A stretch of DNA of 64,000 bases, taken from an uncultured bacterium (GTDB lineage: Bacteria; Bacillota_I; Bacilli_A; RFN20; CAG-826). The DNA lies in contig CASFZN010000017.1 of assembly GCA_949299195.1 (NCBI GenBank), forward strand, positions 3,714-67,713, read 5' to 3'. This document shows positions 21,233 through 60,927 of the stretch, in pieces; the stretch's first letter is position 1; every line of letters begins with the position of its first letter. The notes beneath the pieces were generated by a model, which ran no database searches, was not told where the DNA came from, and worked only from the letters and a program-made list of their open reading frames with translations. The position numbers and the translations under genes were made by a program.

Positions 21233-21264
21233 AAAAAATTGAGACGATTAATCAGTCGTCTCAA
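21233..21264 (-). terminator. Rho-independent terminator for the 21248..22030 gene
   Basis: Perfect 9-bp stem TTGAGACGA/TCGTCTCAA with loop TTAATCAG (which contains the stop codon), then TTTTTT on the minus strand. Confidence 0.7.
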
Positions 21265-22030
21265 TTTTAATTGGTTCTTCTTTATCTATTTTCATTTTCT
21301 TTCGAGTTAAGTCTTCATTAAAGAATTTATTAATACCTAAATAGATAAGATACATCGAAGGTAAACCTAAGTTAGTTTCAATTAAACTATTAATTAATAT
21401 AGTTTGGATAGATGCTTCATTAAATGGCCTAATTCCATTAATTAAAAGTGAAAATTCCCAGCAGAATTGAACGCTTATTCCAATTAAGTTTAACAATAAA
21501 ACATTGATCAATTTCTTTTTGGTAAATAAAGAATAGATAATAACAGATAAATAAGAAACTACGAGGAATATCGCCATAAAATAGTGATATTGATTAGTAG
21601 TTCTATAGGTTTGGATGTTATTTTCTCCTCCAGCAACAGTAATTGAAGGTAAAACAAGCCGCCATCCAATAATTAAAGTAAGCCAATATTTTAAATATTC
21701 ATCTTTTCTTAAGCATAACCAGATGAATGCAAAATTAGTTATGCCATAAGATATGCTCATCCATAATAAGACCAAACAAGTATTTAAATTTCCCTGAATT
21801 ACTCCATCAATTGAAACGCTTCTACTACCACTTATTAGATAAAAATATCCATAATCTACGATAAAATAGAGAATTCCTCCAAATAAAGACCAAATGAGTG
21901 TTTGATATCTTTTTTTAAGGATTAATAAAACTAGTAATAAGACTATAAATATCGAATCTAAAATAATATAAAGTAGATTGAAGTTTCGAGTAGGAGTGAT
22001 TACACTCTCTAAAACATTTAATAAATTCAT
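21248..22030 (-). CDS. Hypothetical polytopic membrane protein
   Basis: 260 aa with about 7 hydrophobic segments and no recognisable motif. Confidence 0.45.
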   Translation of the reverse strand: MNLLNVLESVITPTRNFNLLYIILDSIFIVLLLVLLILKKRYQTLIWSLFGGILYFIVDYGYFYLISGSRSVSIDGVIQGNLNTCLVLLWMSISYGITNFAFIWLCLRKDEYLKYWLTLIIGWRLVLPSITVAGGENNIQTYRTTNQYHYFMAIFLVVSYLSVIIYSLFTKKKLINVLLLNLIGISVQFCWEFSLLINGIRPFNEASIQTILINSLIETNLGLPSMYLIYLGINKFFNEDLTRKKMKIDKEEPIKIETTD

Positions 22031-24862: not shown

Positions 24863-26314
24863 TTAATCGTTATAAGATAAAGCAAGTCTATATAATTTTA
24901 AATATTCCTCAGCAGATTCATTCCATGAATGATCAGTATTTAAAGCGTTTTTAACTAAATTATCCATAACATCCTTTTTATAATAATAAGTAGTTAATGC
25001 ACTTGAAACACATTTTAATGCATCAATAATGGAATAATCATCGAACCCAAATCCATTAGCAATATCTTCATTCTTTCTTTCGGCATCATAACAGATAACT
25101 GAATCTTTTAAGCCGCCAGTTCTTCTAACAAGAGGTAAAGAACCATATCTTTGGGCAATCATTTGACCTAATCCGCATGGTTCAAATGCACTTGGCATAA
25201 TGAAGAAATCACTAGCTGCATATAATTTATGAGCGATATCTTCGCTATAACCTATATATACATAGTTATGAGATGGATTTCTTGCATAAAGATTATTAAA
25301 CATATCTTCTGCATATCTTTCGCCGCTTCCTAAAACCGCGAAGTTGCCACCTTCATGAGTTAAAAAGTCTGCCATAGCATAGATTAAATCTAATCCTTTT
25401 TGGTCAGTTAGTCTTGAAACAACTGCGAAAAGTGGTAATTCTGGATCAAGATTATTTTCTTTACAGAATTCTTCTTTGTTAATCTTTTTATTAGTTTTAT
25501 AGTTATTAACGGTAAAATTCTTATAAATTGTCTTATCTTTTTTAGGATCAAAAGCGGTATAATCCATTCCGTTTAAAATTCCAACAAAGTCATTTTGTCT
25601 TAAAATTAAGTCATACCATAACCCCTTACTTCCTTCGACAGTTGTAAGTTCATAAGCATGAGTTGGACTAACGGTTGTGATTTTATCAGCGAATTTAATT
25701 CCAGCTTTTAAAGTTGAAACTTGATCATCGAATCTAACACTTCCATCATCATATAACGAGGTAGGGAGATTATATAAATCATATAAAGAGTCTCTTCCTA
25801 AATAACCTTTAAATAATGGATTATGAATGGTTAAAACGGTTCTAACTTTCTTTAAGTCGGGATCGTTATGGTAACAAGTTTTTAAAATACATGGAATCAT
25901 TCCACCTTGCCAGTCATGAACATGGGCAATATCAACTTTAAATGGGAGTTTTTTAAGTAAAAGAGTTGAAGCTAAAGCAAAGAAAGCAAATCTTTCACCA
26001 TCATCATAGAAGCCATAAATATTTCCAGGACGATTGAAATAGTAATCATTTTTGATAAAGAAATATTCGATTCCTTCATAGAAAAGATGATAAACTTCGC
26101 ATTCTTTATATCTCCAGTTCATCTTTACTTCATAGGAAAATAATTTTTTTAATTTTGGATATTTGTCGAAATTAATTTTGGAATATAAAGGGGAAACAAC
26201 TGCTACTTTTTCACCCTTTTTAACATATTCCATACTTAAAGAATATGCGACATCACCTAAGCCACCAGTTTTAGAAAATGGATAGCATTCACTTGTTACC
26301 ATTACAATATTCAT
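24863..26314 (-). CDS. glgA: Glycogen synthase
   Basis: Motif SECYPFSKTGGLGDV; 483 aa. Confidence 0.9.
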   Translation of the reverse strand: MNIVMVTSECYPFSKTGGLGDVAYSLSMEYVKKGEKVAVVSPLYSKINFDKYPKLKKLFSYEVKMNWRYKECEVYHLFYEGIEYFFIKNDYYFNRPGNIYGFYDDGERFAFFALASTLLLKKLPFKVDIAHVHDWQGGMIPCILKTCYHNDPDLKKVRTVLTIHNPLFKGYLGRDSLYDLYNLPTSLYDDGSVRFDDQVSTLKAGIKFADKITTVSPTHAYELTTVEGSKGLWYDLILRQNDFVGILNGMDYTAFDPKKDKTIYKNFTVNNYKTNKKINKEEFCKENNLDPELPLFAVVSRLTDQKGLDLIYAMADFLTHEGGNFAVLGSGERYAEDMFNNLYARNPSHNYVYIGYSEDIAHKLYAASDFFIMPSAFEPCGLGQMIAQRYGSLPLVRRTGGLKDSVICYDAERKNEDIANGFGFDDYSIIDALKCVSSALTTYYYKKDVMDNLVKNALNTDHSWNESAEEYLKLYRLALSYND

Positions 26315-26316
26315 AA

Positions 26317-27441
26317 TTATATTTTTTCTCCTTGTGGGACATAAATGATTTCATTTTTTGCACCACATACTTCATTTTTATTAGCAAAAACGCAGAGTTT
26401 ATCGCTAACTACTTTCTTTAAATGGACTCCGCTTTTAATGACACAGTCACTAAAAATAATTGAATCTTCAACAGTTGCACCTTCTTCAACAACAACATTA
26501 CGTGCTAAAACTGAGTTTTTAACCTTTCCATAAACACTACATCCATTTGCGACAACGCTATCTACAACATCGCAGTTAGGCCCATATAAAACAGGTCTAG
26601 TGTCGTGAGTTCTGGTATAAATTTTCCAATCTTCGGAGAAATAATCTTCATTTAAATTCTCTAAATTGTCTTTTAATTTCATGGTTGCTTCATAATATTT
26701 TTCTAAGCTATTAACATAGGTTAATGCTCCATCAAATTTAATACCATGAATTTCATAGTTTGAATATCTTTGAATATAAGTCATTAAATCTGCCATATTG
26801 TAGACATTTGAAATATTTTTGACTAAATCTAGACATTCTTTTAAATAATCCTTATCAAAGATATAGGTTCTTAAAGAGATAAAGACGGTTTTATCTTTTG
26901 GATCGACCTTATCTACTTTTTGGACATTTCCTAAAGCGTTGATAGTGATTTTATTTAAACCTAAATAGTCTTTTCCAGCATTTTCAACTTCACTATAAAG
27001 AACTGAAACTTTCTTATTAGATTTAATGTGTTCTTCAACAACCTTACGATAATCAACCTTCATAACAAATCCAACAGGTACAAAAAGTACATATTTTGAA
27101 TCTTTATCATAAAGGAAATAATCGTTTGCTCTTAAGTTATTAATATCGGTATTTAAAAATGGATTATGGAAACCTTCTTCATGAATCATCCATTGAAAGA
27201 ATCCGGTTTTTGGATTTTTTAAATACGCATTATCGCTTCTTATGTGTTTAATAATACTTCTTGAATAATTTTTAATCATGATTCCAACATTATCGACACC
27301 TGAATTTGTTAAATTTGATAATGCAAAATCAATAAAGGTATATCTTCCTAAAAAAGTTGTAGAAGCAGCAGGTCTTTTTTCAGTTAATAAACCAAATTCA
27401 GGAGTTGAATAAAGATTAATTAAAGCAACTGTGTTTTTCAT
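26317..27441 (-). CDS. glgD: Glucose-1-phosphate adenylyltransferase, GlgD regulatory subunit
   Basis: Homolog of GlgC lacking the catalytic GGxGxRL motif, followed by a LbH repeat domain; 374 aa. Confidence 0.75.
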   Translation of the reverse strand: MKNTVALINLYSTPEFGLLTEKRPAASTTFLGRYTFIDFALSNLTNSGVDNVGIMIKNYSRSIIKHIRSDNAYLKNPKTGFFQWMIHEEGFHNPFLNTDINNLRANDYFLYDKDSKYVLFVPVGFVMKVDYRKVVEEHIKSNKKVSVLYSEVENAGKDYLGLNKITINALGNVQKVDKVDPKDKTVFISLRTYIFDKDYLKECLDLVKNISNVYNMADLMTYIQRYSNYEIHGIKFDGALTYVNSLEKYYEATMKLKDNLENLNEDYFSEDWKIYTRTHDTRPVLYGPNCDVVDSVVANGCSVYGKVKNSVLARNVVVEEGATVEDSIIFSDCVIKSGVHLKKVVSDKLCVFANKNEVCGAKNEIIYVPQGEKI

Positions 27442-28574
27442 TGTTGTAAATTCCTCTCATAATCTAATAATACGATTTTACCGGTATTTTTATTGATTTC
27501 TTCTTTTTCTTTAATAACGGTATTAGGGCCTAAAATTGCATTTTCAACATAGGCACCTTTTCTAATAATTACTCCAGGCATTAAGACTGATTTAACAACC
27601 TTTGCACCCTCTTCAATCATAACTTCATTAGAAATTACGCTTTCAGAGACATCGCCAAATATTCTTGCGCCTTGATTTATAAGTGAATCTTTAACCTTTG
27701 CTTTTTTATCAATAAATTGTGGTAAAGAATTGGTATCTTCACTAAATACTTTTGGATATTCATCAAAATGAATGGTATCTTCAGTTCTTTTTGATGGTAA
27801 TAATTCCATATTTGCTTGATGTAAACTATCAACAGTTCCAACATCTCTCCAATAGCCTTTAAAGCGATAAGCTACGAGTTTTTTATTTTCTTTTAACATC
27901 TTAGGGATAATATTTTTACCAAAATCGTTTTCACTATTTGGATCTTTATGATCTTCAATTAAAGCGCTTCTTAAGGCCTTATAAGTAAAGATATAAACGC
28001 CCATACTTGCTAAATTTGATTTTGGTTCTTTTGGTTTTTCGACGAATTTAGTAATAACATCATTACTATCAACCTCTAAAATACCAAATCTTGATGCTTC
28101 TTTAATATCAACTTCTAAAACGGAAATTGTACAATCGGCCTTACTTTCAGTATGTAAACGAATCATTTCATCATAACTAGTTTTATAGATATGATCTCCT
28201 GAAAGAATAAGGACATATTTTGGATCCTCTTCATCCAAAAAGTCGATATTTTGATAAATTGCATCTGCAGTACCCTTATACCAATTAGCTCCGCTTTCAG
28301 TTTGTCTTGGCGCTAAGGCAACACAAGTTGAGTCAACTCCATCGAATCCCCATTTTGAGCCGTTACCGATGTAGTTGTTTAAAACGACTGATTCATACTG
28401 TGTTAAAACACCACATGAATCGATTGCTGAGTTAGCTACGTTTGATAAAGAAAAGTCAATAATACGATACTTACCACCAAAATAAACTGCAGGTTTTGCA
28501 ATTTTTTTGGTTAATTGATGAAGTCTCGTTCCTTTACCTCCGGCTAAGATCATCGCTACAACATTTCTACCCAT
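27438..28574 (-). CDS. glgC: Glucose-1-phosphate adenylyltransferase
   Basis: Motif ILAGGKGTRLHQLTKKIAKPAV; 378 aa. Confidence 0.9.
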   Translation of the reverse strand: MGRNVVAMILAGGKGTRLHQLTKKIAKPAVYFGGKYRIIDFSLSNVANSAIDSCGVLTQYESVVLNNYIGNGSKWGFDGVDSTCVALAPRQTESGANWYKGTADAIYQNIDFLDEEDPKYVLILSGDHIYKTSYDEMIRLHTESKADCTISVLEVDIKEASRFGILEVDSNDVITKFVEKPKEPKSNLASMGVYIFTYKALRSALIEDHKDPNSENDFGKNIIPKMLKENKKLVAYRFKGYWRDVGTVDSLHQANMELLPSKRTEDTIHFDEYPKVFSEDTNSLPQFIDKKAKVKDSLINQGARIFGDVSESVISNEVMIEEGAKVVKSVLMPGVIIRKGAYVENAILGPNTVIKEKEEINKNTGKIVLLDYERNLQQ

Positions 28575-28669
28575 ACTTTCCTCCCATTTAGATAAAAATA
28601 TTTATTTATAATCAATTTTTATTGCCTTCTATTTTTAAAATATTAAAGAATAAAAATTAATTTAATATA

Positions 28670-31600
28670 TTAGTTAAGATTTTGGGAAATTTCTTTAAAT
28701 GTTAGAACATTGCTTGTGTTTTTATTATGTAATACAACTAAAGTCTCATCGACTAGTTCGGAAATATCTGCAACTTTATCGGTAGGACAGGAGATAATGA
28801 CTTGAAGGTTAAACTTTCTTAATAATTTAACTGCTTCTTTAATTCTACCTCTATCCATCTTTGAGAATGCTTCATCGAAGATGATTAATCTTGAAGTATT
28901 AGCAATTTCGCCTTCTTCATTAACGTGATAAAGTTGGGCAAATGAAGCTAATACTGAGATATAGAATGGAGTTTGAGTTTCACCACCACTCTTTTTCTTA
29001 ATCATCTTAGATAATCTTTGTTCTTCGTTATTTTCACGGTTATAGACAATTAAATCGAAGTCTAAATAGGAACGATAATCAGTAAATTTTTCGATATTCT
29101 TCAATAATTCTTCATTATTTTCTTCAAGATTATTAACATCGACTATTTGTTTGAATAAATCTTCCATGACATCTTTATATTTGTCTAAGAAAAGCGATTC
29201 ATCCTCTCCACCTTCTAATATTATATCATCTTTAAGCATATCGTAATATCTTTTGAATGTGATTGAAGGTTTTACAGTGAATCTATAGGAGTCTCTTCCG
29301 AATGAAGATTGTTCGAGTGCTTCATTTAAATTAGAGATTTGATCTTCTACTTCTTCGATTGCACTTCTTAATTTAAAGATAAAGTCGTCTTTAAATTGTT
29401 GAGTTGCTTTTAAATAAGAATCATGAATTTTTTCACGGTATTCTGGGAGTTTTACCTCTTTAAATTCAATTAATTCCTTTTGGAAGACTTCGTTATCTCT
29501 AACATCTGGATCATAAGAAAGATGATAGTCATGGACATATTCCCTTCTTAATTTACATAAACTTGAGAAAAGATTATTTGATAAATATTGAAGTCTCGAT
29601 AAGGAAGAGTTGGCTTCAGTTAAAATATCAAAATATGTACGACCTCTATTAAGTTGTTCATTTAATAAAGGAAGAGCGTAAATATCGACAAAATCTTTAC
29701 TATATTTATCTTTTAAGGCCTCTTTTCTAGCTTCAATTGATTTTTCTTCATTAACAATTTTTTCAGTTTTTAAAGATTCAATTTCATGGGTTAAATTACC
29801 TTTTTCAATTAAAACATCATCTTTTAATTTGGTAATTTCTTTAATATCTTCTTCAACATCTTTAAGGCGTTTATCTAAGCTTTCAAGTAAGGCGGTGTCA
29901 TGGCTTTCAAGTTCACTATTAAAATATTCTAATGAAGAATTTAATCCCTTGAGTTCGTTACCTCTTGAGATAATTTTTAATAGATGTTCAATTTCACCAC
30001 TTGTTAAAACTTCTAAGTTATTAGCTTCGGTAATGGCTCTATAAATAGTTTTATAAACACTTAAATTTTGATTATTTGCTCTTAATTGTGCTTGTTTTTC
30101 TTCAATAAATCTATCATTTATCTTAACTCCGATAAAGGATTCTTGATAAAGTCGAGGATTCATTTTTGTTAACGAGAAAGCGCGATATAAATCACAACTT
30201 CTAGTAATTCCGTTCCCGCTATCTCTAGCTTCTTCAATATCTCCAGCTTTATATAATCTACCAATTAAATAGTTGGTATAAGCTCTTGCTCCTTCATGAG
30301 TTGTTTCAATTTCTTCTGCTAAAGAACCTTCTTCCATATTGAAATTTCTTTCAATAATCTTTTCTTGGTCAACAAGCGCAGTTGCGTAATAATGATATTC
30401 TTCTAAGATTCTTCTTAAAATCTTATAGGCTTCACTATAATATTTTGGTGGAACAAAAAGATTGAATTTTTGATTATATAAATAACCTTCAATAGCATTA
30501 GCCCAAGATTGGTCTTTAATATCAATAAGGTCACAGAATAATTCGACCTCAATTTTTTTATTAAATCTATTTGATAATTCGGTTTGTAAAGCTTCTTTAA
30601 TACTTTTTAATCTATGATCAAAAGATTTAGAACCTTTTTTAACCATTAATTCTTCTTCTTTTAAACTTTGGATTTTCTTTTCTAAGTTAGCGGTAATTCT
30701 TGCTAAAGAGGTAGCTAAACTTGAAACATTATCTTTAAATTCTTTTAATGCATCTTTAAAAGTTTCTAAATCGGTTTTAGAAACAAGCATTAAATCTTCA
30801 TCTAATTTAGTTTTAATTTTAATTGAAACTTCTTTAACCTTTTTACTAGAAAGTATAATATTTAAAATTTCTTCTTCTTTATCTTCATCATTGATTGCAT
30901 CTTTATCAACAGCACTAAGTTCATCAATTAAATTGGTTGCTTCTTCTTCATAAGATTCAATATATTGCATTAAAGTGTCTTTAACGCCATTTAATTCGTT
31001 CTTAATTGCTCTAATTTTTTCTTCAGTATCACGTTTTTGGATATAAATATCTTCAGTGATTTTAGCAACATCATTATTAGTTCGATCTTGAATAAGTTTA
31101 TATTTTCTTTTTTCGAGTTCTTTAATAGTAGCTGCGTGTTCTTCTAATTCACTTTCAATTTCATGAATTCTTTCTTCAGATTTAATAACTTCATTTTTAA
31201 AGGCTTTAACCTTTTCTTCGCTATTAAAAAGTTCGCATCTATCGATAAAATATTTTGAAACATTGAAATCTTTTTCAATGTCTTTATAAGATTCATAAGA
31301 AGTTTTAATCTCTTCAAGTCGCTCGATTCTTCTTTCAATATTTTCACTTTCTAATTTTAATTTAGAATATTGAATAATATTATCTTGAAGATGAGTAAGA
31401 TCTAAATTTTGTTGCGGATCACAGACATATTCAGTAATAAATGTTGTGATATCGGTAATTGGAGTAAAAGATGTTGCTTTCTTTAAAAGTGAAAAATATT
31501 TATCTTTTAAGCCACCAAATCTTCTTTTTAAGAATTCTTGATATTGTTTATTTGAATCAAAAAAGCGATAACTACCAGCATAATTTTCACTTAAATAGGC

Positions 31601-32056
31601 AGCTAAATCCTTATAAGAAAGTGGGACGTTATCAACAATAAATTCATTTTCTGGGATTGGAGCTTCAACGTTAAAGAAGCGATGTTCTTCACTTCCATCA
31701 TCATAAGAATCAAAAACAATTCCCATGGTAAAGTCTTTATTTTCAACATCGTCATGAAATTCTAAAGCGATATAGGAAGTAAATCTTCCATTTCTTAAAT
31801 ATTTAAAGCCACCTTCTTGGTCATCACCAAGTTCACCTCTTAGATAACCTTTTAAAGTTCTAGCGCTTTTATCTAAAGCTGCTTTGTTAAAGCTTCTTCC
31901 ACTTGTATCACCAAGTAAAACAACTTCAAATGCGTCAACAAGAGTGGATTTACCACTACCATTAAGGCCAGTTAAAAATACAATTTGGTCGATATTAAAA
32001 CTTTCATTCCAGAAATAATGCCAGTTAATTAATTTAATCTTCGTTAATAATTTCAT
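28670..32056 (-). CDS. SMC-like ATPase of the MksB/JetC (MukB-like) family
   Basis: N-terminus LINWHYFWNE...FLTGLNGSGKSTL (Walker A), about 900 aa of coiled-coil, then C-terminal SGGETQ signature and Walker B LIIFDEAFSKMD. The start was moved to the ATG at 32056 (SD GTGAGGAAA), which overlaps the end of the upstream gene by 23 nt. Confidence 0.75.
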   Translation of the reverse strand: MKLLTKIKLINWHYFWNESFNIDQIVFLTGLNGSGKSTLVDAFEVVLLGDTSGRSFNKAALDKSARTLKGYLRGELGDDQEGGFKYLRNGRFTSYIALEFHDDVENKDFTMGIVFDSYDDGSEEHRFFNVEAPIPENEFIVDNVPLSYKDLAAYLSENYAGSYRFFDSNKQYQEFLKRRFGGLKDKYFSLLKKATSFTPITDITTFITEYVCDPQQNLDLTHLQDNIIQYSKLKLESENIERRIERLEEIKTSYESYKDIEKDFNVSKYFIDRCELFNSEEKVKAFKNEVIKSEERIHEIESELEEHAATIKELEKRKYKLIQDRTNNDVAKITEDIYIQKRDTEEKIRAIKNELNGVKDTLMQYIESYEEEATNLIDELSAVDKDAINDEDKEEEILNIILSSKKVKEVSIKIKTKLDEDLMLVSKTDLETFKDALKEFKDNVSSLATSLARITANLEKKIQSLKEEELMVKKGSKSFDHRLKSIKEALQTELSNRFNKKIEVELFCDLIDIKDQSWANAIEGYLYNQKFNLFVPPKYYSEAYKILRRILEEYHYYATALVDQEKIIERNFNMEEGSLAEEIETTHEGARAYTNYLIGRLYKAGDIEEARDSGNGITRSCDLYRAFSLTKMNPRLYQESFIGVKINDRFIEEKQAQLRANNQNLSVYKTIYRAITEANNLEVLTSGEIEHLLKIISRGNELKGLNSSLEYFNSELESHDTALLESLDKRLKDVEEDIKEITKLKDDVLIEKGNLTHEIESLKTEKIVNEEKSIEARKEALKDKYSKDFVDIYALPLLNEQLNRGRTYFDILTEANSSLSRLQYLSNNLFSSLCKLRREYVHDYHLSYDPDVRDNEVFQKELIEFKEVKLPEYREKIHDSYLKATQQFKDDFIFKLRSAIEEVEDQISNLNEALEQSSFGRDSYRFTVKPSITFKRYYDMLKDDIILEGGEDESLFLDKYKDVMEDLFKQIVDVNNLEENNEELLKNIEKFTDYRSYLDFDLIVYNRENNEEQRLSKMIKKKSGGETQTPFYISVLASFAQLYHVNEEGEIANTSRLIIFDEAFSKMDRGRIKEAVKLLRKFNLQVIISCPTDKVADISELVDETLVVLHNKNTSNVLTFKEISQNLN

Positions 32057-32681
32057 CGCTAGTTTCCTCACTTTCACTCATTTCTTTATCTAAAGCAAGT
32101 GACATTGCTCTAATTTTTTCATTATCAAGGGCATAACAAATTGAAGGGAGAATATAAAAAGCTACGCTACCTTCATCATAATTTCCGCTAACCTTAGTAA
32201 TAATATTGTGGCTTGCTAAAAGTCTTAAACTTTTAGCGATACCTCTGCCGCTTAATTTCTTTCCAGGCATTAAAATTCCATGTTCAAGCATGGTACGGAT
32301 TAAAACTGGAGTTGTAATATAAATAGATTCTCCAGCTAAATTTGATTCTTTTCTTTCATTTTCATAAATCATTCTTAAAACAAAAAGAATTAAACTTGTT
32401 TCTCTATCAAGACGAATATGGTTTTCGCCACTGAGATTAACTAAACTAACAACTCCTAAAATCTTATCAATTTCAATTGACCAGTTTGAGAAGTTTAAAT
32501 ATTCATTAATTAATTCATAATTTCTTTCAATATATCGATAATCTGGAGAGATTTTAATGATTTTTTCTCTAGGATCAAAGATGTCTCTTACAATAAATCC
32601 TTTTAACAAGATACGGTTTATTGTAGTTCCAAAGGCGTTTTGATCAGAATATGATAATTCGTTATATTTTTCTTCAAACAT
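32034..32681 (-). CDS. MksE/JetB-like (MukE-like, DUF4194-type) subunit
   Basis: 215 aa. Assigned from size and conserved F-E-B gene order; SD AAGGAGA. Confidence 0.45.
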   Translation of the reverse strand: MFEEKYNELSYSDQNAFGTTINRILLKGFIVRDIFDPREKIIKISPDYRYIERNYELINEYLNFSNWSIEIDKILGVVSLVNLSGENHIRLDRETSLILFVLRMIYENERKESNLAGESIYITTPVLIRTMLEHGILMPGKKLSGRGIAKSLRLLASHNIITKVSGNYDEGSVAFYILPSICYALDNEKIRAMSLALDKEMSESEETSDEIINED

Positions 32682-32683
32682 TG

Positions 32684-34126
32684 TTACTTATTCTCCTTTT
32701 CTTTTTCTTTTCTTATAAATGTGACGTTTGGAATTAAGAAATAATTGGTAATAATTCCAGCGTTAGGATAGATTTCATCTATTTTATAGAATGAGTTTTC
32801 ATCTTCACTTTTAACAGTTGCAAGAATTAAGCAGATAAGTTCATCAAAATTTTCAATATTGAAATCTTCGGTAGTAATCTCTCTACTTCTTCCGAATTCT
32901 CTTTCCATAAAGGAATAGATTTTCTCATCAGTATACATATTGGAAGTTTCTTCTAAGAATGATGATTTTAAATAATCATCAATATCAGAGAAGTCTTGAA
33001 TTTCCATTGGTTCTCCAATTTCTTTATATTTACGCATAATTGGTAAAGAAACAGATTCACTATCAAGATAACCTTGTTCATAAAGAGTGAAGGAATCTTG
33101 CATTTTTGATAAGACTTTAGCAAGTTCGCGTGGTTCATTTATCTTATTTGCGTAATGTTTAAAGATATTTTCTAAATGACCTTTAACGGTATGATCAGCG
33201 TTATTTAAATACAAAATCTTTTGAGTTGAAGATTTAGTATAAGCGTTATTTTCTTTATCGATTGAAGCGATTAAAGAATTTAAGGTTTCATAAGTATCAC
33301 TGATATAGTTGATTTTTTCGATAATATCGGCTTCAATTTCTTTTTTGTTATTACTTTTAGAATTGATTGAAGCTTGGAAGATTAATTTTTCTCTAATTTC
33401 TTTGGTTTCTAACCAGTGATTTAAAATCTTAATAATTGGTCTTTTATATTTAGCGACACTATCAAAAGTTTTAAGCGGATGGTAGTATCGATCGGAAATC
33501 TTTCTTTTATAAATATCAAAATAAGAATGTAAAACCTCATTAGTATCGAATAATTTTGATAATTTATTTTGGAAGATTCTAATAGAATGAGTTAAGGTTA
33601 TGAGTTCTACTTTTAACTTTTTAGTATTTTCATAACATCTTAAAAGGGTTGGATAAAGGAGTTCATCCATATCTTCATCTTCTAACTTTAATTCACTATA
33701 AGTAGAGTGAACTAAAGAAATATAAGGAGATTCTTCATCACTTACGATATCACTAAAAGTTTTAAGTAAGGATATTGAATAGGGAGGAAGGATTACTATT
33801 TCTTCATAATTGTCAATATCCATTGAAATATCAATCCATCCACATTCCTCTAATTTTCTTACAATATAAGAAGCTTTTGAGGAATTATTGTAATCGTTTT
33901 TTAAGTTTTCTTTCTCTTCATCGCTTATTTCTTCTTCAGTTAAATCAAGAAGAGATAAATCTTTTTCTCGATCCTTTAAAGCGTTTAAAAAATCAACCTT
34001 TCTAATGAAGGTTTCATCATTTTGAAGTAAAGAATAAAGTATCGATAAACTCTCTATATAAATCTCGCGATTTTTACCTTGAAAAATTGAAAAATAATTT
34101 TGCGGAACTATATTAAATAAATTCAT
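32684..34126 (-). CDS. MksF/JetA-like (MukF-like kleisin, DUF3375-type) subunit
   Basis: 480 aa, first gene of the three-gene operon. Assigned from size and order. Confidence 0.45.
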   Translation of the reverse strand: MNLFNIVPQNYFSIFQGKNREIYIESLSILYSLLQNDETFIRKVDFLNALKDREKDLSLLDLTEEEISDEEKENLKNDYNNSSKASYIVRKLEECGWIDISMDIDNYEEIVILPPYSISLLKTFSDIVSDEESPYISLVHSTYSELKLEDEDMDELLYPTLLRCYENTKKLKVELITLTHSIRIFQNKLSKLFDTNEVLHSYFDIYKRKISDRYYHPLKTFDSVAKYKRPIIKILNHWLETKEIREKLIFQASINSKSNNKKEIEADIIEKINYISDTYETLNSLIASIDKENNAYTKSSTQKILYLNNADHTVKGHLENIFKHYANKINEPRELAKVLSKMQDSFTLYEQGYLDSESVSLPIMRKYKEIGEPMEIQDFSDIDDYLKSSFLEETSNMYTDEKIYSFMEREFGRSREITTEDFNIENFDELICLILATVKSEDENSFYKIDEIYPNAGIITNYFLIPNVTFIRKEKEKENK

Positions 34127-34234: not shown

Positions 34235-34260
34235 AAAAGAGAGACTTTGGTAGTCTCTCT
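34232..34260 (-). terminator. Rho-independent terminator for the GDPD gene
   Basis: Stem AGAGAGACT/AGTCTCTCT with loop TTGG, then TTTTTT on the minus strand. Confidence 0.65.
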
Positions 34261-34998
34261 TTAAGAATTATTAATAACTTCTTTTACCTTTTCTACCTCT
34301 AAATATTGGAAGGTAACTGAATCTACGAATTTAGTGTATTGAAGTAAGTCTTCTTCGTTTTCAATAGTCCAAGAAAAGATAACTCTTTTTTCTTTTAATG
34401 ATTGATATTTTTTATTCTTAAAATAAGTATATTCTAGATCTAATCCTTCGAATAAGTTTTTAATATGTAAGACATAGCGATGTTTATAATCTGCTAAAAA
34501 TAATCGAATATATCCATATTTTTTAAAAGGAAATAAACAAGAAGGATAAAAAGAAATGATAATGATATTTTCTTTTTTTAAATCTTTTATTAATTCGATT
34601 ACTTTTTGAGCTAATAGTCTACTATTTTTATGCTTTTTACTAGGTTTTAACTCAATAACCATCGGAGTTTCATTGTTATTTATTTCAATAACCTCTTTTA
34701 AAGTAGGAATAGTTTCGCCGTTTTTTAAGCGATAATTATCTTTAATTTCTTTTAAAGTTAATTCTTCAACTTCACCTTCTTTATCAGTTACTCTTTTAGT
34801 TTCACTATCATGAATTACAATTACTTCGTTATCTTTAGATAAATGAACATCAAATTCAAAAGGTAAATTTAAAGAAATTGCTTTTTTAAAACTAGCTAAA
34901 CTGTTTTCAGTTATAGTTTCTTTATCATGGAGTCCTCTATGAGCAACACCTTCAAAAAACTTCGGATTTAATCTAGCTTTTACTTCTTCTTTTTTCAT
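34261..34998 (-). CDS. Glycerophosphodiester phosphodiesterase
   Basis: Motif HRGLH...ENSLASF...FEFDVHLSKDNEVIVIHD; 245 aa. Confidence 0.8.
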   Translation of the reverse strand: MKKEEVKARLNPKFFEGVAHRGLHDKETITENSLASFKKAISLNLPFEFDVHLSKDNEVIVIHDSETKRVTDKEGEVEELTLKEIKDNYRLKNGETIPTLKEVIEINNNETPMVIELKPSKKHKNSRLLAQKVIELIKDLKKENIIIISFYPSCLFPFKKYGYIRLFLADYKHRYVLHIKNLFEGLDLEYTYFKNKKYQSLKEKRVIFSWTIENEEDLLQYTKFVDSVTFQYLEVEKVKEVINNS

Positions 34999-35000
34999 TA

Positions 35001-36434
35001 TTAGTCACCTTGATCCATTGCTTCTAGACCAGTTTTAATTGTAGTTTTATCGATTTTTACGCTCTTAATAAATAAAACGATTATTAAGGAAACAGTTCCA
35101 CAAATTAATGCATAGAAAGGTAAAATTCCAAAATCAAAGCCTTCGATTAACATTAAAGTACCAAGTAACATTGGGGTAATAGTTTGAGCAACCATACTTG
35201 AAGCATAATAATATCCAGTAAAGGCACCGATTTTTTTAGATGAACAAAGCTCAACAACCATTGGATAGGAATTAACATGAACTAAACTCATACCAAATCC
35301 TTTAATAAACCAAATAATATATAAAGCAAATGGGAACTCTCCAACTCCATAAGCAAAACTTGGAGCACATTCACTTAAAATTCCCCAAACAGCATAGGAA
35401 GCAACCGAAAGAGTTAATCCACTAAAAACAGTCCATTTTCTACCGATTTTACCAGCAATAATTCCACCTAAGGCAAAACCAATAACACTACCTACACCAC
35501 CAACAATGGTATTAATCATAGTTCCTTGAGTTGAACCACCTAAATGATAAATTGTGTAGTTAGACATGAAAGTTCCAATTCCGTTATCAGCCATAAACCA
35601 GAAGAATTCAGCTACTAAAATTAAAATTAACATGATTTTATTAGCTTTAGTCATTGGTTTATCATCATCGACTTTATCAGTAATTTCTGCGTATTCTTCA
35701 CCTCTTTTGAGTTCGTCTTTCATTTCTTCAGCAATTTTATTTTCTTTAATTGTGAAAAGTAAGACTAAAGCAGAAACAATCATTAAAATAGACGCAATTA
35801 AAAATGGAGCTTCAATAACCCAAATATTTTGATATGCCCATTCAGCACCTTCATTTAATTTTAAATAATCACTTAAAACAAAGATAATACCGGTAACTGT
35901 CGCAAAAGCGCCACCAATATAACCCATGATATTGATAATTCCATTAGCTTTACTTCTTAAAGGTTTTGGAGTCATATCAGGCATTAAAGAAACTGCAGGG
36001 TTTCGATACATCATCATGAAAATCATGACAATTGCCATCATTACAACAACACCAACCGCATTATTATAATGATATAAAACAGGAATAAATGGGAAAGCTA
36101 CAGCCGAAACAAAGGTTCCTACTAAAATATAAGGCATTCTTTTTCCTAGCGGCGTTTTTGTTTTATCCGATAATTTTCCGAATATTGGTAATAAAATTAA
36201 AGCGGCTAAATTATCTAAAGCCATGACAACACCAACTAAATATTGAACTTGGGTTTCATCATTTACACCAAAAGCTTCACTAAAAAGCGAAGTTAAAAGA
36301 GTTGGACACCGTGAGTCATAGACTTGCCAAAATAAAAGAATTCCAAAGAAAGCGAAACCAATAATAAATGTTCTTTTATAGTTAAGCTTAAATCCTCCAT
36401 CTTTTACCTGAATAGAATTATTTTCTTTTTCCAT
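35001..36434 (-). CDS. MFS-family transporter
   Basis: 12 transmembrane helices. The start was moved to the ATG at 36434 (MEKENN) because the ORF-track start is TTG. Neither candidate has a clear SD. Confidence 0.65.
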   Translation of the reverse strand: MEKENNSIQVKDGGFKLNYKRTFIIGFAFFGILLFWQVYDSRCPTLLTSLFSEAFGVNDETQVQYLVGVVMALDNLAALILLPIFGKLSDKTKTPLGKRMPYILVGTFVSAVAFPFIPVLYHYNNAVGVVVMMAIVMIFMMMYRNPAVSLMPDMTPKPLRSKANGIINIMGYIGGAFATVTGIIFVLSDYLKLNEGAEWAYQNIWVIEAPFLIASILMIVSALVLLFTIKENKIAEEMKDELKRGEEYAEITDKVDDDKPMTKANKIMLILILVAEFFWFMADNGIGTFMSNYTIYHLGGSTQGTMINTIVGGVGSVIGFALGGIIAGKIGRKWTVFSGLTLSVASYAVWGILSECAPSFAYGVGEFPFALYIIWFIKGFGMSLVHVNSYPMVVELCSSKKIGAFTGYYYASSMVAQTITPMLLGTLMLIEGFDFGILPFYALICGTVSLIIVLFIKSVKIDKTTIKTGLEAMDQGD

Positions 36435-36450
36435 AAACAACAATTTAGAT

Positions 36451-37089
36451 TTAATCTTTAAAAACTTCTTCGAGTTTTGAAGGTAATTCTTTCAAAGAAG
36501 AAATTTTATAAACATCTTCTTCAATTACCCCGAATCCATATGAAGCATGGATGAATTTTACATTTGCTTTTGTTGATTCAACATAATCTTTTAAAGTGTC
36601 ACCAACATAAACTACTTCATCAATTCCTTCTTTTTCTTTTAAAAGTTTTATATTTTGGTATTTTTCTAATCCAGTATCTCCTGCAGAAAGATGACCTTTA
36701 AAATATTTAGACATATTCAAAGATTCTAAATAATTTTCAATATAGCCTTTATCACAGTTAGACACGATATAAAGAGGGTATTTTTCTTTTAAAAGAGAAA
36801 GAACTTCTTCTTCATCTTTATACATATTTCCAGGATTATTTCTTAAATGCTCAATTTCTTTATGAATACAGAGTTTAAAATATTCTAATCCTTTTTCTAT
36901 TGAGACATCTTTAAATGCTAAAACAACTGTTTCAAGGGGAGTTAATCCCATGTATGACTTTATGGTCTTATAATCAAAAGAATATGATAAGTTATTTTCC
37001 TTCATAGCGATGTTCCAACTTTCCATAATTGGAGTAATCGCATCCCAAAGGGTACCATCTAAATCGAAAAAAACAGCCTTTTTGCCCAT
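36451..37089 (-). CDS. HAD-IA family hydrolase/phosphatase
   Basis: Motifs FFDLDGTLWD and VGDTLKD; 212 aa. Confidence 0.75.
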   Translation of the reverse strand: MGKKAVFFDLDGTLWDAITPIMESWNIAMKENNLSYSFDYKTIKSYMGLTPLETVVLAFKDVSIEKGLEYFKLCIHKEIEHLRNNPGNMYKDEEEVLSLLKEKYPLYIVSNCDKGYIENYLESLNMSKYFKGHLSAGDTGLEKYQNIKLLKEKEGIDEVVYVGDTLKDYVESTKANVKFIHASYGFGVIEEDVYKISSLKELPSKLEEVFKD

Positions 37090-37287: not shown

Positions 37288-37479
37288 ATGTCAAGAGTTT
37301 GCCCAATTACTGGAAAAAAACCTATCAGTGGTAACAATCGTTCTCACTCTCTTCGTGCTACTCGTAGAAGATGGGATGTAAATCTCCATACTTATAAAAT
37401 TGAAATTAACGGTCAAATTGTTAAAGTCAGAATGAGTGCAAGAGCATATAGAAGCCTTCATAAATCACAAGCACAATAA
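37288..37479 (+). CDS. rpmB: 50S ribosomal protein L28
   Basis: MSRVCPITGKKPISGNNRSHSLRATRRRWDVNL; 63 aa. Confidence 0.9.
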   Translation: MSRVCPITGKKPISGNNRSHSLRATRRRWDVNLHTYKIEINGQIVKVRMSARAYRSLHKSQAQ

Positions 37480-49897: not shown

Positions 49898-51100
49898 CTA
49901 TTCTCCGCCTTTACATCTAACGAAATTATCGAATTCTTTGACCTCTTCCCAAGATTTAAACTTAGCGACAAAGAAAGAATCTCCCATATCATCTCTTAAT
50001 GCATAAGGGAATTCGCCATAAAAACATAAACTATTTTTATATTTTTCAATAATTTCTTCTTTTGAGTGTAAATATTTATACATATAACGACGGTGTGCGC
50101 TACATGCATAATATTTTTCTAAATCCATATTTTGACGGTTTTCATCATATGCCATAACATCAGCATATAATTGATAAATATCGATAGAATTCGCAAAATC
50201 AATCAAATCAGGAGTATATGCTCCAGCAACTCTAAAATTAGATTCAAGTGGAACAAACGTTCCTTTTGGCCCTAAATATGGATGATCTTCAGTTAATTTA
50301 AAGAATTCAAAATGGAAAAGTCTACGGTTTAAACCAAAAACTTCAACGCTTTTTCTTCCGGCTTCTAATAATGCATCAGGTATTTTTGGTAAGCAACAAT
50401 ACATATCATCAGTTGAAGAGTTAACAACATCAAAAGTTGGAGTCGCAAAATAGTGACAAGTATTAAAGATTACTTTTCCTTGTGAATTAGTAACTCCATC
50501 ATAAGAATAGAGCTCACCTTTAATATATTCTTCAAAAATATATTCTTTTTCAGGTGGCAAACTTGTTGCAAAATCTATAAGTTCGATTTCATTATCAATT
50601 TTCTTTCCACCTTGAGCACCAACTCCTACATTAGGTTTAGCAAAAATTGGGAATCCGACTTTAGAAGCGAATTCTTTTAATAAATCATGATCTTTAGTGA
50701 CAATATATCTAGCAGGTTTTAATCCAGCACGAATAAAATATTCTTTTTGGTTACATTTTTGCATTTTCCATGCTAAATCATTCTCATTAAAGGAAGTTTT
50801 AATTCCAAAAACATCTCTTAAACGAGCATCTTTGATTAACCAATATTCATTGTTGGATTCAATATATTCAATTTCTCCGTATTTATCTCTAAAATATTGA
50901 ACTGCTCTTTTTTCATTTTCAAAAGTATCCATGAAAGAACATAGATAATATTCTTCTAGCGCATACTTACATTGTTCAGGAAGCTCATTATATGGAGCGT
51001 CTCCTATTCCTAAAACGTTAAAGCCATGACTTTTTAAAGCCATACAAAACTTCCAGTAGGAATCTGGAAAATGTGGGGAAACAAAAATAAAATTTCTCAT
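49898..51100 (-). CDS. ATP-grasp domain protein of unknown substrate
   Basis: 400 aa with Gly-rich loops characteristic of the ATP-grasp fold (FAKPNVGVGAQGG). It does not look like a canonical Ddl. Confidence 0.5.
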   Translation of the reverse strand: MRNFIFVSPHFPDSYWKFCMALKSHGFNVLGIGDAPYNELPEQCKYALEEYYLCSFMDTFENEKRAVQYFRDKYGEIEYIESNNEYWLIKDARLRDVFGIKTSFNENDLAWKMQKCNQKEYFIRAGLKPARYIVTKDHDLLKEFASKVGFPIFAKPNVGVGAQGGKKIDNEIELIDFATSLPPEKEYIFEEYIKGELYSYDGVTNSQGKVIFNTCHYFATPTFDVVNSSTDDMYCCLPKIPDALLEAGRKSVEVFGLNRRLFHFEFFKLTEDHPYLGPKGTFVPLESNFRVAGAYTPDLIDFANSIDIYQLYADVMAYDENRQNMDLEKYYACSAHRRYMYKYLHSKEEIIEKYKNSLCFYGEFPYALRDDMGDSFFVAKFKSWEEVKEFDNFVRCKGGE

Positions 51101-58157: not shown

Positions 58158-59801
58158 ATGAGTTTTGAAGTTACAATTAATAATGATGTAAGACACTTTG
58201 AAAAGAAAGTGCGTTTAAAAGACTTAACTAACGGCAATTATAATTATATTGGAGCCTTAGTTAATGGAAGAGTTCGTGAACTTGATTACGATTTACATTA
58301 CACTTCTAATGTTAAATTCTTAACAACTAGTGATTCAATAGCCAGTGGAATCTATGAAAGAGGTATCCGCTATCTTTTTGTTATGGCTGTTAAAAGAATT
58401 TATCCGGAATTAAGTTTTAGACTATCATATTCTATTTCTAGATCGATTTATGCTCATGAAATAGATGATAAAAAATTAACCCAACAAATGGTTAAAAAAA
58501 TCGAACAAGAAATGAGAAATATTGTCGAAAAAGACTATATTTTTGAAAGAATTATTATTTCTAATGAAGAGGCTGAAAAATTATATCAAGAAACTAGAAG
58601 GGTTGATAAAATTGAGATTTTAAAATATCGTCCTGAAAAAACAGTCCATATTTATAAATGTGATGGATATTTAAACTATATGTATGGAAAAACGGTCCCT
58701 TCAACCGGTTATTTAAAAGATTTTAAATTGATTTATTATCCACCTGGAATCTTAATTCAATATCCTCGTAGTGAATTTAATGGAAAAATCCCACCATTTA
58801 AAGATGAACCAATCTTTAGTGACACTTTAGGAGGTGCTGATGCTTGGAGTAATTTAGTTAACTTATCAACTATTGCTGAAATTAATAAGCTTGCAGTTGA
58901 ATATGAAGGAACAAATATCATCAATATCTGTGAAAATAGGCATAATAGAATGCTTGTTGAACTAGGACAAAAAATCTACGATAACATCGGATCTATTCGT
59001 CTTATTTGTATCGCTGGTCCTTCAAGTAGCGGTAAGACTACTTTCAGTGATCGATTAACCCTTGAACTTATCTCTAGAGGTATCAATCCAATTAGAATCT
59101 CACTTGATGATTATTATAAAGATAGAGAAGATGTACCTTTAGATGAATTTGGAGAACCAGATTTTGAATCTTTAGATGCTTTAGATGTTGATTTATTTAA
59201 TGAAAACTTAGTTGATTTACTTAGTGGCGAAGAGGTTGGAATGCCTCGATTTGATTTCCAACTCAAAAAGAGAGTCTATGATAAAAGAATTAAAATTGAA
59301 AAAGGACAACCTATTATTATTGAAGGAATTCATGCTTTAAATGAAGCTTTGACTCCTTTAATTCCTAAATCAATAAAATATAAGATTTATATTTCTCCTC
59401 AAGCTCAAATCAATTTGGATAACGAAAACCCAATTTCATTAACTGATATTAGACTTATTAGACGAATTGTTAGAGATTCAAAATATCGTAATTCTTCAGC
59501 TGAAGATACCTTATCAATGTGGCCTTCAGTAAGAAGAGGAGAATTTAAATGGATCTATCAAACTCAAGAAGAGGCAGATTATGTTTTTGACTCCTTCTTA
59601 AATTATGAATTATGCGTCTTAAAAAAATATGCCTATCCATTAATCAATAAAATCGATAAAGATGGGCCATTTGGACCAGATGCTGAAAGATTATTAAAAT
59701 TACTTAAATATTTTGTCGATTTAGATGAAAAATATATCCCTTGTAATTCAATTCTTAAGGAATTTATTGGGGGTTCTTGTTATCGTGATGCTGGGTTTTA
59801 A
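58158..59801 (+). CDS. udk: Uridine kinase family protein with an N-terminal ThrRS/TGS-like domain
   Basis: C-terminal P-loop ICIAGPSSSGKTT and DDYY motif; 547 aa. Confidence 0.75.
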   Translation: MSFEVTINNDVRHFEKKVRLKDLTNGNYNYIGALVNGRVRELDYDLHYTSNVKFLTTSDSIASGIYERGIRYLFVMAVKRIYPELSFRLSYSISRSIYAHEIDDKKLTQQMVKKIEQEMRNIVEKDYIFERIIISNEEAEKLYQETRRVDKIEILKYRPEKTVHIYKCDGYLNYMYGKTVPSTGYLKDFKLIYYPPGILIQYPRSEFNGKIPPFKDEPIFSDTLGGADAWSNLVNLSTIAEINKLAVEYEGTNIINICENRHNRMLVELGQKIYDNIGSIRLICIAGPSSSGKTTFSDRLTLELISRGINPIRISLDDYYKDREDVPLDEFGEPDFESLDALDVDLFNENLVDLLSGEEVGMPRFDFQLKKRVYDKRIKIEKGQPIIIEGIHALNEALTPLIPKSIKYKIYISPQAQINLDNENPISLTDIRLIRRIVRDSKYRNSSAEDTLSMWPSVRRGEFKWIYQTQEEADYVFDSFLNYELCVLKKYAYPLINKIDKDGPFGPDAERLLKLLKYFVDLDEKYIPCNSILKEFIGGSCYRDAGF

Positions 59802-60927
59802 TCTTCACAAATTTATTAACATATTGAAGATTAAGTGACTTATGAATAACGAGTAATTCATTCATATAAACATTTCTTAAATTCAAATATCTAGCGTATT
59901 CTTCTTCGGTGGCGATTTCTTTATAGAAGGTATTAAAAACACTTTCGAGTCTAAAGAAACTTTCATATAAATTAATCATTGTAATTAGAAAATAATATTC
60001 TCTATTAGAATAGATTAAAAGCGGAGAAGAATGCGCTATTTCACTAGATAATTCATATATTTTAGAATATTTTTTTAATCCAGCCATATTCTCAACGCCA
60101 TCTCTAAAGTTAAGTTTATAATCAACTAAATATTCTTTATCCTTGATTGCAAAAAGATAGCCATATTCGATAAATTTTTTCATATCTTTACTTTTTAAGC
60201 CTTTTTCTTTCATCTTTTCTTTAATCTCGGCGAATATTTCGTCGGTTTTTTCTTTGCTTTTGATTTGGCCTCGATATGCTAAAGAATATTCAATATGTCT
60301 AAAATAGGCATCAAATACATCTTTTCCGTTTAATACTAGTACATATAATATCGATTCATTTTCATGTGTAGTTCTCCAGGTTGAAAAAGCCTCGACATCA
60401 AAACCATTAATTAAAAGATTTTGAATACATTGAGATAAAGAAAATGAATTTTTAAGCATATCTTTAATTAATCTTTGATATTTATCGTATTCAACGTTTT
60501 GGCGGTTAAGGATGTTTAAACAGAAGTTCAAATATAAGGCCATGGTTGAAATTTGAGGATTAAATTTATTTAAATATGCTTGAGATTTATAGTTTAATTG
60601 TTCATTTGTAAGATATTTATCGCAAATAACTGAACATAAATAATGATAAAAATCCTCATCCTGAAGCATTTTTTCAATACTTACTTTCTCTCCCCATCTA
60701 ATTGAATGAGCAAACTTAATTTCATTTAAAATATATAAAAGAACAACGATTGGATTAACAAAGTTAAACTCTTTAAATTCACTTTGTTTTAAAACAGTTT
60801 CAATCGCTTCAGTAACTGTTTCATATATGTCATATAAAAGATCGCTAGAATCTAAAAAATCTTGTTCTACATTAAGTCTTTTTAAGGTGCTATCGAATTG
60901 AGGTTTATTTATCTTCATTACGTTCAT
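59764..60927 (-). CDS. Hypothetical protein
   Basis: 387-aa ORF. It overlaps the udk 3' end convergently by 38 nt and has no recognisable motif. Confidence 0.4.
   Translation of the reverse strand: MNVMKINKPQFDSTLKRLNVEQDFLDSSDLLYDIYETVTEAIETVLKQSEFKEFNFVNPIVVLLYILNEIKFAHSIRWGEKVSIEKMLQDEDFYHYLCSVICDKYLTNEQLNYKSQAYLNKFNPQISTMALYLNFCLNILNRQNVEYDKYQRLIKDMLKNSFSLSQCIQNLLINGFDVEAFSTWRTTHENESILYVLVLNGKDVFDAYFRHIEYSLAYRGQIKSKEKTDEIFAEIKEKMKEKGLKSKDMKKFIEYGYLFAIKDKEYLVDYKLNFRDGVENMAGLKKYSKIYELSSEIAHSSPLLIYSNREYYFLITMINLYESFFRLESVFNTFYKEIATEEEYARYLNLRNVYMNELLVIHKSLNLQYVNKFVKIKTQHHDNKNPQ

Follow-up and report, generated by a model that had tools for sequence, protein, structure and literature searches.

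What does a Wadjet-type SMC operon do for a bacterium when the nuclease gene is missing from its locus? A hypothesis current in the SMC field derives MukBEF and MksBEF from Wadjet systems that were domesticated once the nuclease had been lost; the examples known so far are too diverged to reveal the transition from Wadjet to condensin. The window considered here, which is the whole 64-kb stretch of DNA that was analysed, comes from a small, AT-rich gut bacterium and carries three genes, jetA, jetB and jetC, for which the first-pass annotation had left two readings, namely a chromosome-organizing condensin or a Wadjet whose nuclease is encoded elsewhere. The locus is laid out as follows.

32684..34126, minus strand: jetA, mksF-like kleisin, 480 aa
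32034..32681, minus strand: jetB, mksE-like KITE subunit, 215 aa
28670..32056, minus strand: jetC, mksB-like SMC ATPase, 1128 aa
34155..34183, minus strand: promoter-like site for jetABC, TTAAAA-17 nt-TATAAT with extended TG, 10/12 consensus matches
34236..34262, minus strand: terminator-like hairpin, 11-bp stem and T run, closing the upstream GDPD gene
34261-34998: GDPD gene, upstream of jetA
37288..37479, plus strand: rpmB (L28), divergently oriented, conserved as the upstream anchor of the synteny
28575..28669, minus strand: jetC-glgC spacer, 95 nt
27438-28574, minus strand: glgC, 95 nt beyond the jetC stop
24863..28574, minus strand: glgC-glgD-glgA, conserved downstream neighbours (Pfam, identical contig L001), outside the complex

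The three co-oriented ORFs lie where the first-pass annotation had placed them, with the same lengths, and form one minus-strand operon in the order A-B-C. The gap of 2 nt between the jetA stop and the jetB start, the overlap of the jetB 3' end with jetC (23 nt), and the position of glgC 95 bp downstream and of the GDPD gene upstream also agree with that description. The jetC ORF (28670-32077) gives 1135 aa if a GTG is taken as the start and 1128 aa if translation begins with the ATG of position 32056, a start which is common to all homologues (M1 and K2 are invariant) and is preceded by a GAGGA Shine-Dalgarno sequence. The promoter-like site, with a -10 hexamer that ends 29 nt ahead of the jetA ATG, is a consensus match only, in a region that shows no enrichment of such sites. 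Since the terminator-like hairpin closes the upstream gene, jetABC would be a separate transcription unit. The jetC-glgC spacer contains no terminator-like hairpin and, by JetD HMM, no trace of jetD, and transcriptional read-through into glgCDA is possible. The link between jetABC and glgCDA is stable, and its functional meaning is not obvious. In the source species, rpmB and jetA are separated by an inserted HAD-MFS-GDPD block (34261-37089).

The assignment of the three subunits to their families is far above chance. JetA matches Pfam PF18982 JetA (DUF5716; 3e-87, model positions 2-434 of 434) and, over its full length, PADLOC JetA1 PDLC00449 (1.1e-118); JetB matches Pfam DUF4194/JetB (1.7e-14) and, again over its full length, PADLOC JetB1 PDLC00502 (5.1e-62); and JetC matches PADLOC JetC1 PDLC00519 with E=0 and 1089 bits (model positions 1-1088 of 1097). 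These full-length matches bear out the MksFEB/JetABC type of SMC operon that had been proposed from the letters alone. In Pfam, JetC further matches SbcC_Walker_B (3.8e-24), AAA_29 (1e-16) and part of the MukB N-terminal family (E 2.9e-7, residues 7-59, i.e. 53 residues); its SMC_N score of 19.6 bits is under the 40-bit cut-off, and none of the operon proteins matches the MukF or MukE families. The JetC motifs reported earlier are all present: LINWHYF, Walker A GLNGSGKST (aa 30-38), the signature SGGETQ (1023-1028) and Walker B LIIFDEAF (1057-1064). An exact-sequence look-up of the 1128-aa JetC returned no record, that of JetA did find one, the best homologue on PLSDB plasmids is a remote one with 28% identity, and in the literature no earlier description of JetABC from the CAG:826 / Ca. 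Onthovivens lineage was found.

The absence of a nuclease gene from the locus, already noted in the first-pass annotation, extends well beyond it. An HMM was built from the JetDs of the nearest JetD-bearing relatives; as a control, it recovered 7/7 outgroup JetDs at E<1e-200. Applied to all six reading frames of the window, it gave nothing better than a spurious E=1.3, and it likewise detected no JetD along the 74.7-kb contig from which the window is taken or at 72 syntenic loci, searched together with 8 kb of flanking sequence. When the JetD profile was compared with 5.8 billion proteins, none of the best 120 of 737 hits could be attributed to the lineage; these 120, with identities down to 38%, come from operons of the Clostridia type or from canonical AT-rich ones, and on no contig do they occur together with a lineage JetC. 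No smc, scpA or scpB was found in the window or on the 74.7-kb contig, and a search of the fetched loci for SMC/ParB signatures and long ORFs found none.

The nearest outgroup JetCs, with 35-40% identity, fall in the same PADLOC sub-model (PDLC00519) and come from canonical jetABCD operons. Because these nearest operons still have JetD, the ancestor was probably a canonical jetABCD operon of the Firmicutes sub-family JetC1-PDLC00519 / JetD1-PDLC00533. One rival reading is that jetABC still serves a plasmid-cleaving Wadjet, with an unlinked JetD or a substitute nuclease joining the complex in trans. In all outgroup operons examined, however, jetD lies immediately 3' of jetC, while no JetD is found within 8-10 kb at the 72 lineage loci or on the source contig, and the JetD relatives among the best 120 of 737 hits are of other types. 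One of the outgroup operons, L172, has jetABCD inside a defence island with AbiEii and AAA_21-RloB; in contrast, jetABC of the lineage is flanked by housekeeping genes and no defence island is present, which agrees with the first-pass annotation, where no obvious island was seen. This context, the fixed synteny and the housekeeping-like dN/dS described below are atypical for defence genes. We thus regard a nuclease acting in trans as quite improbable.

An argument in its favour comes from JetC itself. In E. coli JetC, F919 is the JetD-docking residue (10.1101/2023.11.03.565488), and its putative counterpart F956 is invariant in the lineage, which would be unexpected if no partner docks there and counts against a nuclease-free reading. 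The mapping is tentative at about 20% identity: alignment with the solved JetC of Pseudomonas aeruginosa PA14 (PDB 8dk1), which is a distant match (E=1.4e-7), gives F956, whereas alignment with the E. coli profile places the counterpart about 4 residues upstream. On the other hand, of the 12 fixed substitutions in JetC between outgroup and lineage, three cluster at 960-964, directly beside F956, which suggests a remodelled surface near the putative docking phenylalanine. A sliding-window comparison of conservation in lineage and outgroup revealed no clearly relaxed region. For JetB, a profile gave no match to solved JetBs, so that the 'IFDR' motif, sought as a JetD-contact feature, could not be located. 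JetBs of the JetD-bearing Clostridial operons have a conserved C-terminal tail, [VI]IRG[DE], which was considered as a JetD-tethering peptide and rejected: it is encoded just upstream of the jetC start codon, in operons where the jetB stop and the jetC ATG overlap, and as deduced from the protein sequences, the codons of the tail would spell the Shine-Dalgarno-like AGAGG.

Within the lineage, JetD-less jetABC occurs at one site, prkC-rpe-rpmB / jetABC / glgCDA-leuS, in about 70 GTDB species representatives, an order that is also seen in metagenome contigs (glgCDA has the same order in L005-L080). The radiation covered is order-level, and JetC identity among its members is 49-71%. They are uncultured Bacilli (Ca. 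Onthovivens, CAG:826 and "Mollicutes" MAGs) with the standard genetic code, and the label "Mollicutes-like" given earlier is only loosely apt. The ATPase motifs (Walker A, SGGETQ, Walker B) are undamaged in every complete jetC copy. Purifying selection on jetABC is strong and at housekeeping level: in 12 close genome pairs, dN/dS of jetA, jetB and jetC is 0.014-0.29, matching leuS, glgC and glgA in the same pairs. Inheritance in the lineage is vertical, to judge from pairwise divergences, which correlate with those of LeuS for JetA (r=0.88) and JetC (r=0.84) much as for GlgC (r=0.92) and GlgA (r=0.90); on average, JetC has diverged as much as GlgA.

These data also bear on the idea that jetABC is a decaying, functionless remnant left after the loss of jetD. 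That jetD is gone would fit such decay, as would the syntenic relative L091 (53% GC), in which the flanking synteny is identical and rpmB directly adjoins glgC, with the whole operon absent. L091 also counts against the condensin reading, since at least one related lineage does without jetABC and may not need it. The comparison comes from a GlgC-anchored metagenome scan in which, among the matches listed, most were unrelated Firmicutes and only L090-L094 were informative. However, the low dN/dS, the absence of pseudogenes and of any frameshift or stop across about 70 species, the invariant catalytic motifs and the retention of 5.4 kb in genomes of about 1 Mb all contradict decay; the remnant explanation is effectively refuted by the selection analysis and has hardly any probability left.

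Of the two readings left by the first-pass annotation, the condensin half is thus favoured by synteny, selection and co-divergence with LeuS. Because of the synteny in about 70 species, the purifying selection, the co-divergence and the housekeeping flanks, we consider it likely that jetABC descends from a type I Wadjet, has been domesticated without its nuclease and functions as a condensin of the MksBEF type. JetC dimers would be bridged by the kleisin JetA and a KITE dimer of JetB; the complex would bind the chromosome, use ATP hydrolysis to drive DNA loop extrusion, and in this way help to compact and separate sister chromosomes, while DNA cutting would be impossible without JetD. Such chromosomal loop extrusion, with a role in chromosome organization or segregation, is suggested by analogy with MksBEF of P. 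aeruginosa and by the published view that JetABC motors extrude whatever DNA they load on. A nuclease-free, domesticated core also agrees with a hypothesis in the literature by which a Wadjet becomes locked into chromosome maintenance once JetD is lost.

The same motor could in principle serve defence without a nuclease, if complete loop extrusion senses small circular DNA that is then silenced, compacted or missegregated in a manner like that of Smc5/6. In favour of this, the ATPase is intact, and so is each of the three subunits. Yet the locus is fixed and syntenic across an order-level radiation, whereas defence systems usually turn over fast. The shape- and size-sensing activity is attributed to JetABC alone in PMC10586767, but in the systems studied there and in PMC10123090, restriction needs the nuclease. 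Defence by this route seems unlikely to us.

Domestication as a condensin leads to a further possibility, that a Wadjet without nuclease became the principal, perhaps the sole, condensin of this lineage in place of Smc-ScpAB. The MukBEF takeover in gamma-proteobacteria would then have a second counterpart, independent of it and much younger. We offer this tentatively and find it rather doubtful at present. MukBEF is the precedent for replacement of Smc-ScpAB by a Wadjet-like complex. If lineage genomes turn out to lack Smc-ScpAB, jetABC would stand beside MukBEF as an instance of condensin replacement, and if it did take the place of Smc-ScpAB, the operon would represent a natural intermediate between a defence system and a chromosome machine. 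The lineage operon is unmistakably type I Wadjet by sequence, yet behaves like a set of core, vertically inherited genes. Together with the Clostridial JetABCD operons, at 35-40% identity, it provides a sequence-close pair for asking how an immune motor becomes a chromosomal one; candidate changes for the conversion are the substitutions fixed in the hinge and around JetC 956-964. Programs that find defence systems should avoid scoring nuclease-free jetABC loci as degraded Wadjet.

Among known systems, the operon shares with type I Wadjet (JetABCD, also MksBEFG or EptABCD) the end-to-end JetA1, JetB1 and JetC1 matches along with the Pfam JetA and JetB matches, the gene order A-B-C with translational coupling, and the PDLC00519 model common to the lineage and the JetD-bearing Clostridial operons. 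It differs in lacking JetD (Toprim/DUF2220), and hence a cleavage module, and in its position: in about 70 species it has been passed on vertically at one fixed site among housekeeping genes, outside any defence island. Smc-ScpAB resembles it in having an ABC ATPase of the SMC type, whose coiled coil is long, and in an overlapping presumed function, but the partners in the lineage operon are JetA and JetB instead of ScpA and ScpB, neither of which is encoded nearby. MukBEF of the gamma-proteobacteria belongs to the same architecture class (SMC, kleisin, KITE dimer), and JetC has the partial MukB N-terminal match, whereas the sequences of the lineage are of the JetABC type, without MukF or MukE matches. 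MksBEF of P. aeruginosa, like the lineage operon, is a three-gene SMC/kleisin/KITE operon without nuclease; it is considered to derive from JetABCD via loss of JetD and to act on the chromosome (PMC10586767; 10.1101/2020.05.18.101659). The lineage operon differs from it in being fixed throughout an entire genome-reduced lineage, with a chromosomal activity that is putative, and its loss of the nuclease appears to be an event independent of MksBEF that took place in the Firmicutes.

The jet operon lies on the minus strand, which carries almost all window genes, in uniformly AT-rich DNA (24-31% GC throughout the window), and consists of three co-oriented genes:

32684-34126, minus strand, jetA, 480 aa
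32034-32681, minus strand, jetB, 215 aa, starting 2 nt past the jetA stop
28670-32056, minus strand, jetC, 1128 aa from ATG, overlapping jetB by 23 nt

All details of size, order, spacing and overlap in the first-pass annotation proved correct, as did its flanking genes. The glgC gene starts 95 nt downstream of jetC, and the GDPD gene ends 134 nt upstream of jetA with a terminator-like hairpin, followed before jetA by a promoter-like TTAAAA-17-(TG)TATAAT that matches the consensus at 10 of 12 positions. The jetC ATG at 32056 is preceded by a GAGGA Shine-Dalgarno sequence and is conserved in all homologues; an alternative upstream GTG would give 1135 aa.

Profile searches with Pfam and PADLOC bear out the proposed MksFEB/JetABC-type SMC operon, placing the three proteins in JetA, JetB and JetC; they neither assign the large protein to an unrelated ABC/RecN family nor separate its partners from MukF/MukE-like proteins. 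In Pfam, the 480-aa protein is JetA (PF18982, 3e-87, whole model covered), the 215-aa protein is DUF4194/JetB (1.7e-14), and the 1128-aa protein matches AAA_29 and SbcC_Walker_B, with a short MukB N-terminal match and an SMC_N match below the cut-off. In PADLOC, each of the three is an end-to-end match to type I Wadjet (JetA1 1.1e-118; JetB1 5.1e-62; JetC1 E=0, 1089 bits, model positions 1-1088 of 1097), and none reaches the curated cut-off of any NCBIfam model. JetC has the ATPase motifs Walker A (GLNGSGKST), signature (SGGETQ) and Walker B (LIIFDEAF).

The claim that no nuclease gene is present at the locus also stands, since the window contains no JetD-like ORF and no jetD adjoins the operon in any of 72 syntenic loci. 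A JetD HMM was built from seven JetDs whose genes immediately follow jetC; they come from the closest relatives with a JetD, which are Clostridia (Pfam JetD_C 1e-22 to 1e-28; PADLOC JetD1 PDLC00533 1e-124 to 1e-135). Searched against six-frame translations of the window and all fetched loci, it recovered only its source proteins (E<1e-200), the best spurious match having E=1.3. The remaining window and the adjoining 10 kb of the 74.7-kb parent contig hold ordinary housekeeping and metabolic genes, including priA, rlmN, prpC/prkC, rpe, the atp operon, leuS, tyrS and glycerol metabolism genes, and no smc, scpAB or Toprim gene.

Regarding a JetD that acts in trans, a profile search of 5.8 billion proteins gave 737 matches, the best 120 of which reach down to 38% identity; among these 120, the named ones are all Clostridia-type, the AT-rich ones checked belong to canonical operons, and none was traced to contigs bearing a JetC of the lineage (uncultured Bacilli with JetD-less jetABC). 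For the best 120 of 737 matches, this is suggestive evidence that would speak against a lineage JetD. Residue F956 of the window JetC, the likely equivalent of the JetD-docking F919 of E. coli JetC, is invariant in JetD-less and JetD-bearing groups, which would favour action in trans; it carries little weight, because identity is about 20% and two alignments place the equivalent residue about 4 positions apart. JetD-bearing and JetD-less JetC are separated by twelve fixed substitutions, and the three beside F956 argue against a trans-acting JetD, which is quite unlikely. These three and the hinge substitutions are:

JetC 956-964, nt ~29165-29191, minus strand, H960Y, A963V and I964M, beside the putative JetD-docking F956
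JetC 593-637, nt ~30146-30280, minus strand, F593Y, V597L, M622D, Q625R and W637Y, hinge

In seven JetD-bearing Clostridial operons (L081, L083-L086, L088, L089), the C-terminus of JetB is a conserved [VI]IRG[DE] that follows an acidic linker, a tail that is absent from the JetD-less lineage. It may be a JetD-tethering peptide, but is probably a by-product of the jetC Shine-Dalgarno sequence and not a peptide motif.

Gut and bioreactor MAGs with the labels Ca. Onthovivens, Acholeplasmataceae, Bacilli or Mollicutes contain numerous JetC homologues at 56-70% identity. The 72 loci (JetC 49-71% identical to that of the window) come from a scan in which each GTDB species was represented by one genome, and all have the arrangement prkC - rpe - membrane protein - rpmB (divergent) / jetA-jetB-jetC / glgC-glgD-glgA - leuS. 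One insertion is found in the window's species only:

34261-37089, between rpmB and jetA, HAD hydrolase, MFS transporter and GDPD block

In relatives at 70% JetC identity (L005, L010-L012), rpmB lies directly upstream of jetA. Lineage contigs with the same synteny and 59-65% JetC identity (L014, L015, L017, L019, L020, L031, L078) also occur in GenBank bins titled Phocaeicola dorei, Bacteroidaceae, Slackia isoflavoniconvertens, Acutalibacteraceae, Parabacteroides goldsteinii and Lachnospiraceae, which are probably mislabelled or contaminated.

All copies not cut by a contig end are intact and keep the three ATPase motifs. Pairwise protein divergence follows that of LeuS from the same genomes (JetA r=0.88, JetC r=0.84), about as closely as for GlgC (0.92) and GlgA (0.90), with JetC diverging at the rate of GlgA. 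Across twelve pairs of closely related genomes, jetA, jetB and jetC have dN/dS values (0.014-0.29) indistinguishable from those of leuS, glgC and glgA. Judged from sequence comparison, these intact copies, fixed synteny, LeuS-like divergence and housekeeping-like dN/dS indicate that jetABC is a vertically inherited core gene set, a pattern unlike that of a mobile defence system or a decaying remnant. A dead Wadjet remnant is effectively excluded by the intact copies and their dN/dS.

Next in similarity, at 35-40% identity, are JetCs encoded in canonical jetABCD operons from Clostridia and other Firmicutes; these JetCs score 1263-1294 bits with the same PADLOC JetC1 sub-model (PDLC00519) as compared to 1089-1092 for the lineage. 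One AT-rich Firmicute (L172 1-21227, JBANRW010443545.1, 25% GC) carries a canonical jetABCD inside a defence island, next to AbiEii, AAA_14/DUF4143 and an AAA_21+RloB pair, and shows a mobile Wadjet in contrast to the window context. In the JetC tree, JetD-less sequences form one group with JetD-bearing ones outside, and jetABC also adjoins glgCDA in a second JetD-less subgroup (L092, L170, L171; JetC 39-40% identical). The simplest history is a single jetD loss in the lineage ancestor once a type I Wadjet was established beside the glg operon. A metagenome contig of 53% GC (L091 6768-16116, Ga0183100_1000279) has the same prkC-rpe-TM-rpmB/glgCDA-leuS order without jetABC, with 580 bp of non-coding DNA at its position. 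Since L091 is as distant as the deepest lineage splits and its position in the unrooted tree is ambiguous, either jetABC was lost there or it was gained after that split, L091 then representing the pre-insertion state.

Some relatives carry a gene X (285-346 aa) between jetC and glgC, the usual place of jetD. Its carriers are the deep-branching L048, L049, L053, L058, L062, L064 and L072-L077, plus the L092/L170/L171 group; in L171 X still adjoins glgC but lies apart from jetC, with an ABC transporter between them. The X proteins form one coherent family, with two long N-terminal helices resembling a membrane hairpin and then an alpha/beta domain. X occurs in none of 78 glgC loci without jetABC, nor in the window, and is not counted as part of the JetABC complex.

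Elsewhere in the window, CGG is nearly unused (2 of 19,173 codons in all 54 ORFs of at least 150 aa: codon 124 of ORF 21248-22030 and codon 45 of the MFS gene 35001-36443), and TGA is the stop of one of these 54 ORFs. Reassignment of CGG from Arg to Trp in some Onthovivens genomes was described in a 2026 paper (PMC13092985). Three sizeable ORFs with little or no annotation adjoin glpK and the ppa region:

59764-60927, 387 aa, DUF5677 protein
60965-62293, 442 aa, no Pfam match
49898-51100, 400 aa, no Pfam match

In Wadjet, the SMC motor JetABC, a dimer of dimers, senses the shape of DNA through loop extrusion, and JetD alone is nucleolytic (PMC10586767; 10.1101/2023.11.03.565488). Because the locus closely fits a domestication scenario already proposed in the review literature, we adopt as mechanism that the window jetABC would encode a complex without nuclease that extrudes loops of the host chromosome, an activity that we infer with reasonable confidence. 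Nuclease-independent plasmid control by JetABC is an improbable alternative. That jetABC has replaced Smc-ScpAB in the lineage is conceivable, if rather doubtful.

No prior description of the lineage jetABC was found in the literature. Nuclease-free Wadjet-like condensins are already known and the window locus is another, which appears to be an independent event in Firmicutes; it is an unusually informative case, being close in sequence to nuclease-bearing systems and fixed in about 70 species with genomes of about 1 Mb. The locus differs from Wadjet (JetABCD) in genomic context and in lacking the defining JetD gene, belongs to neither MukBEF nor Smc-ScpAB, and agrees in every testable respect with a nuclease-free condensin of the MksBEF type.
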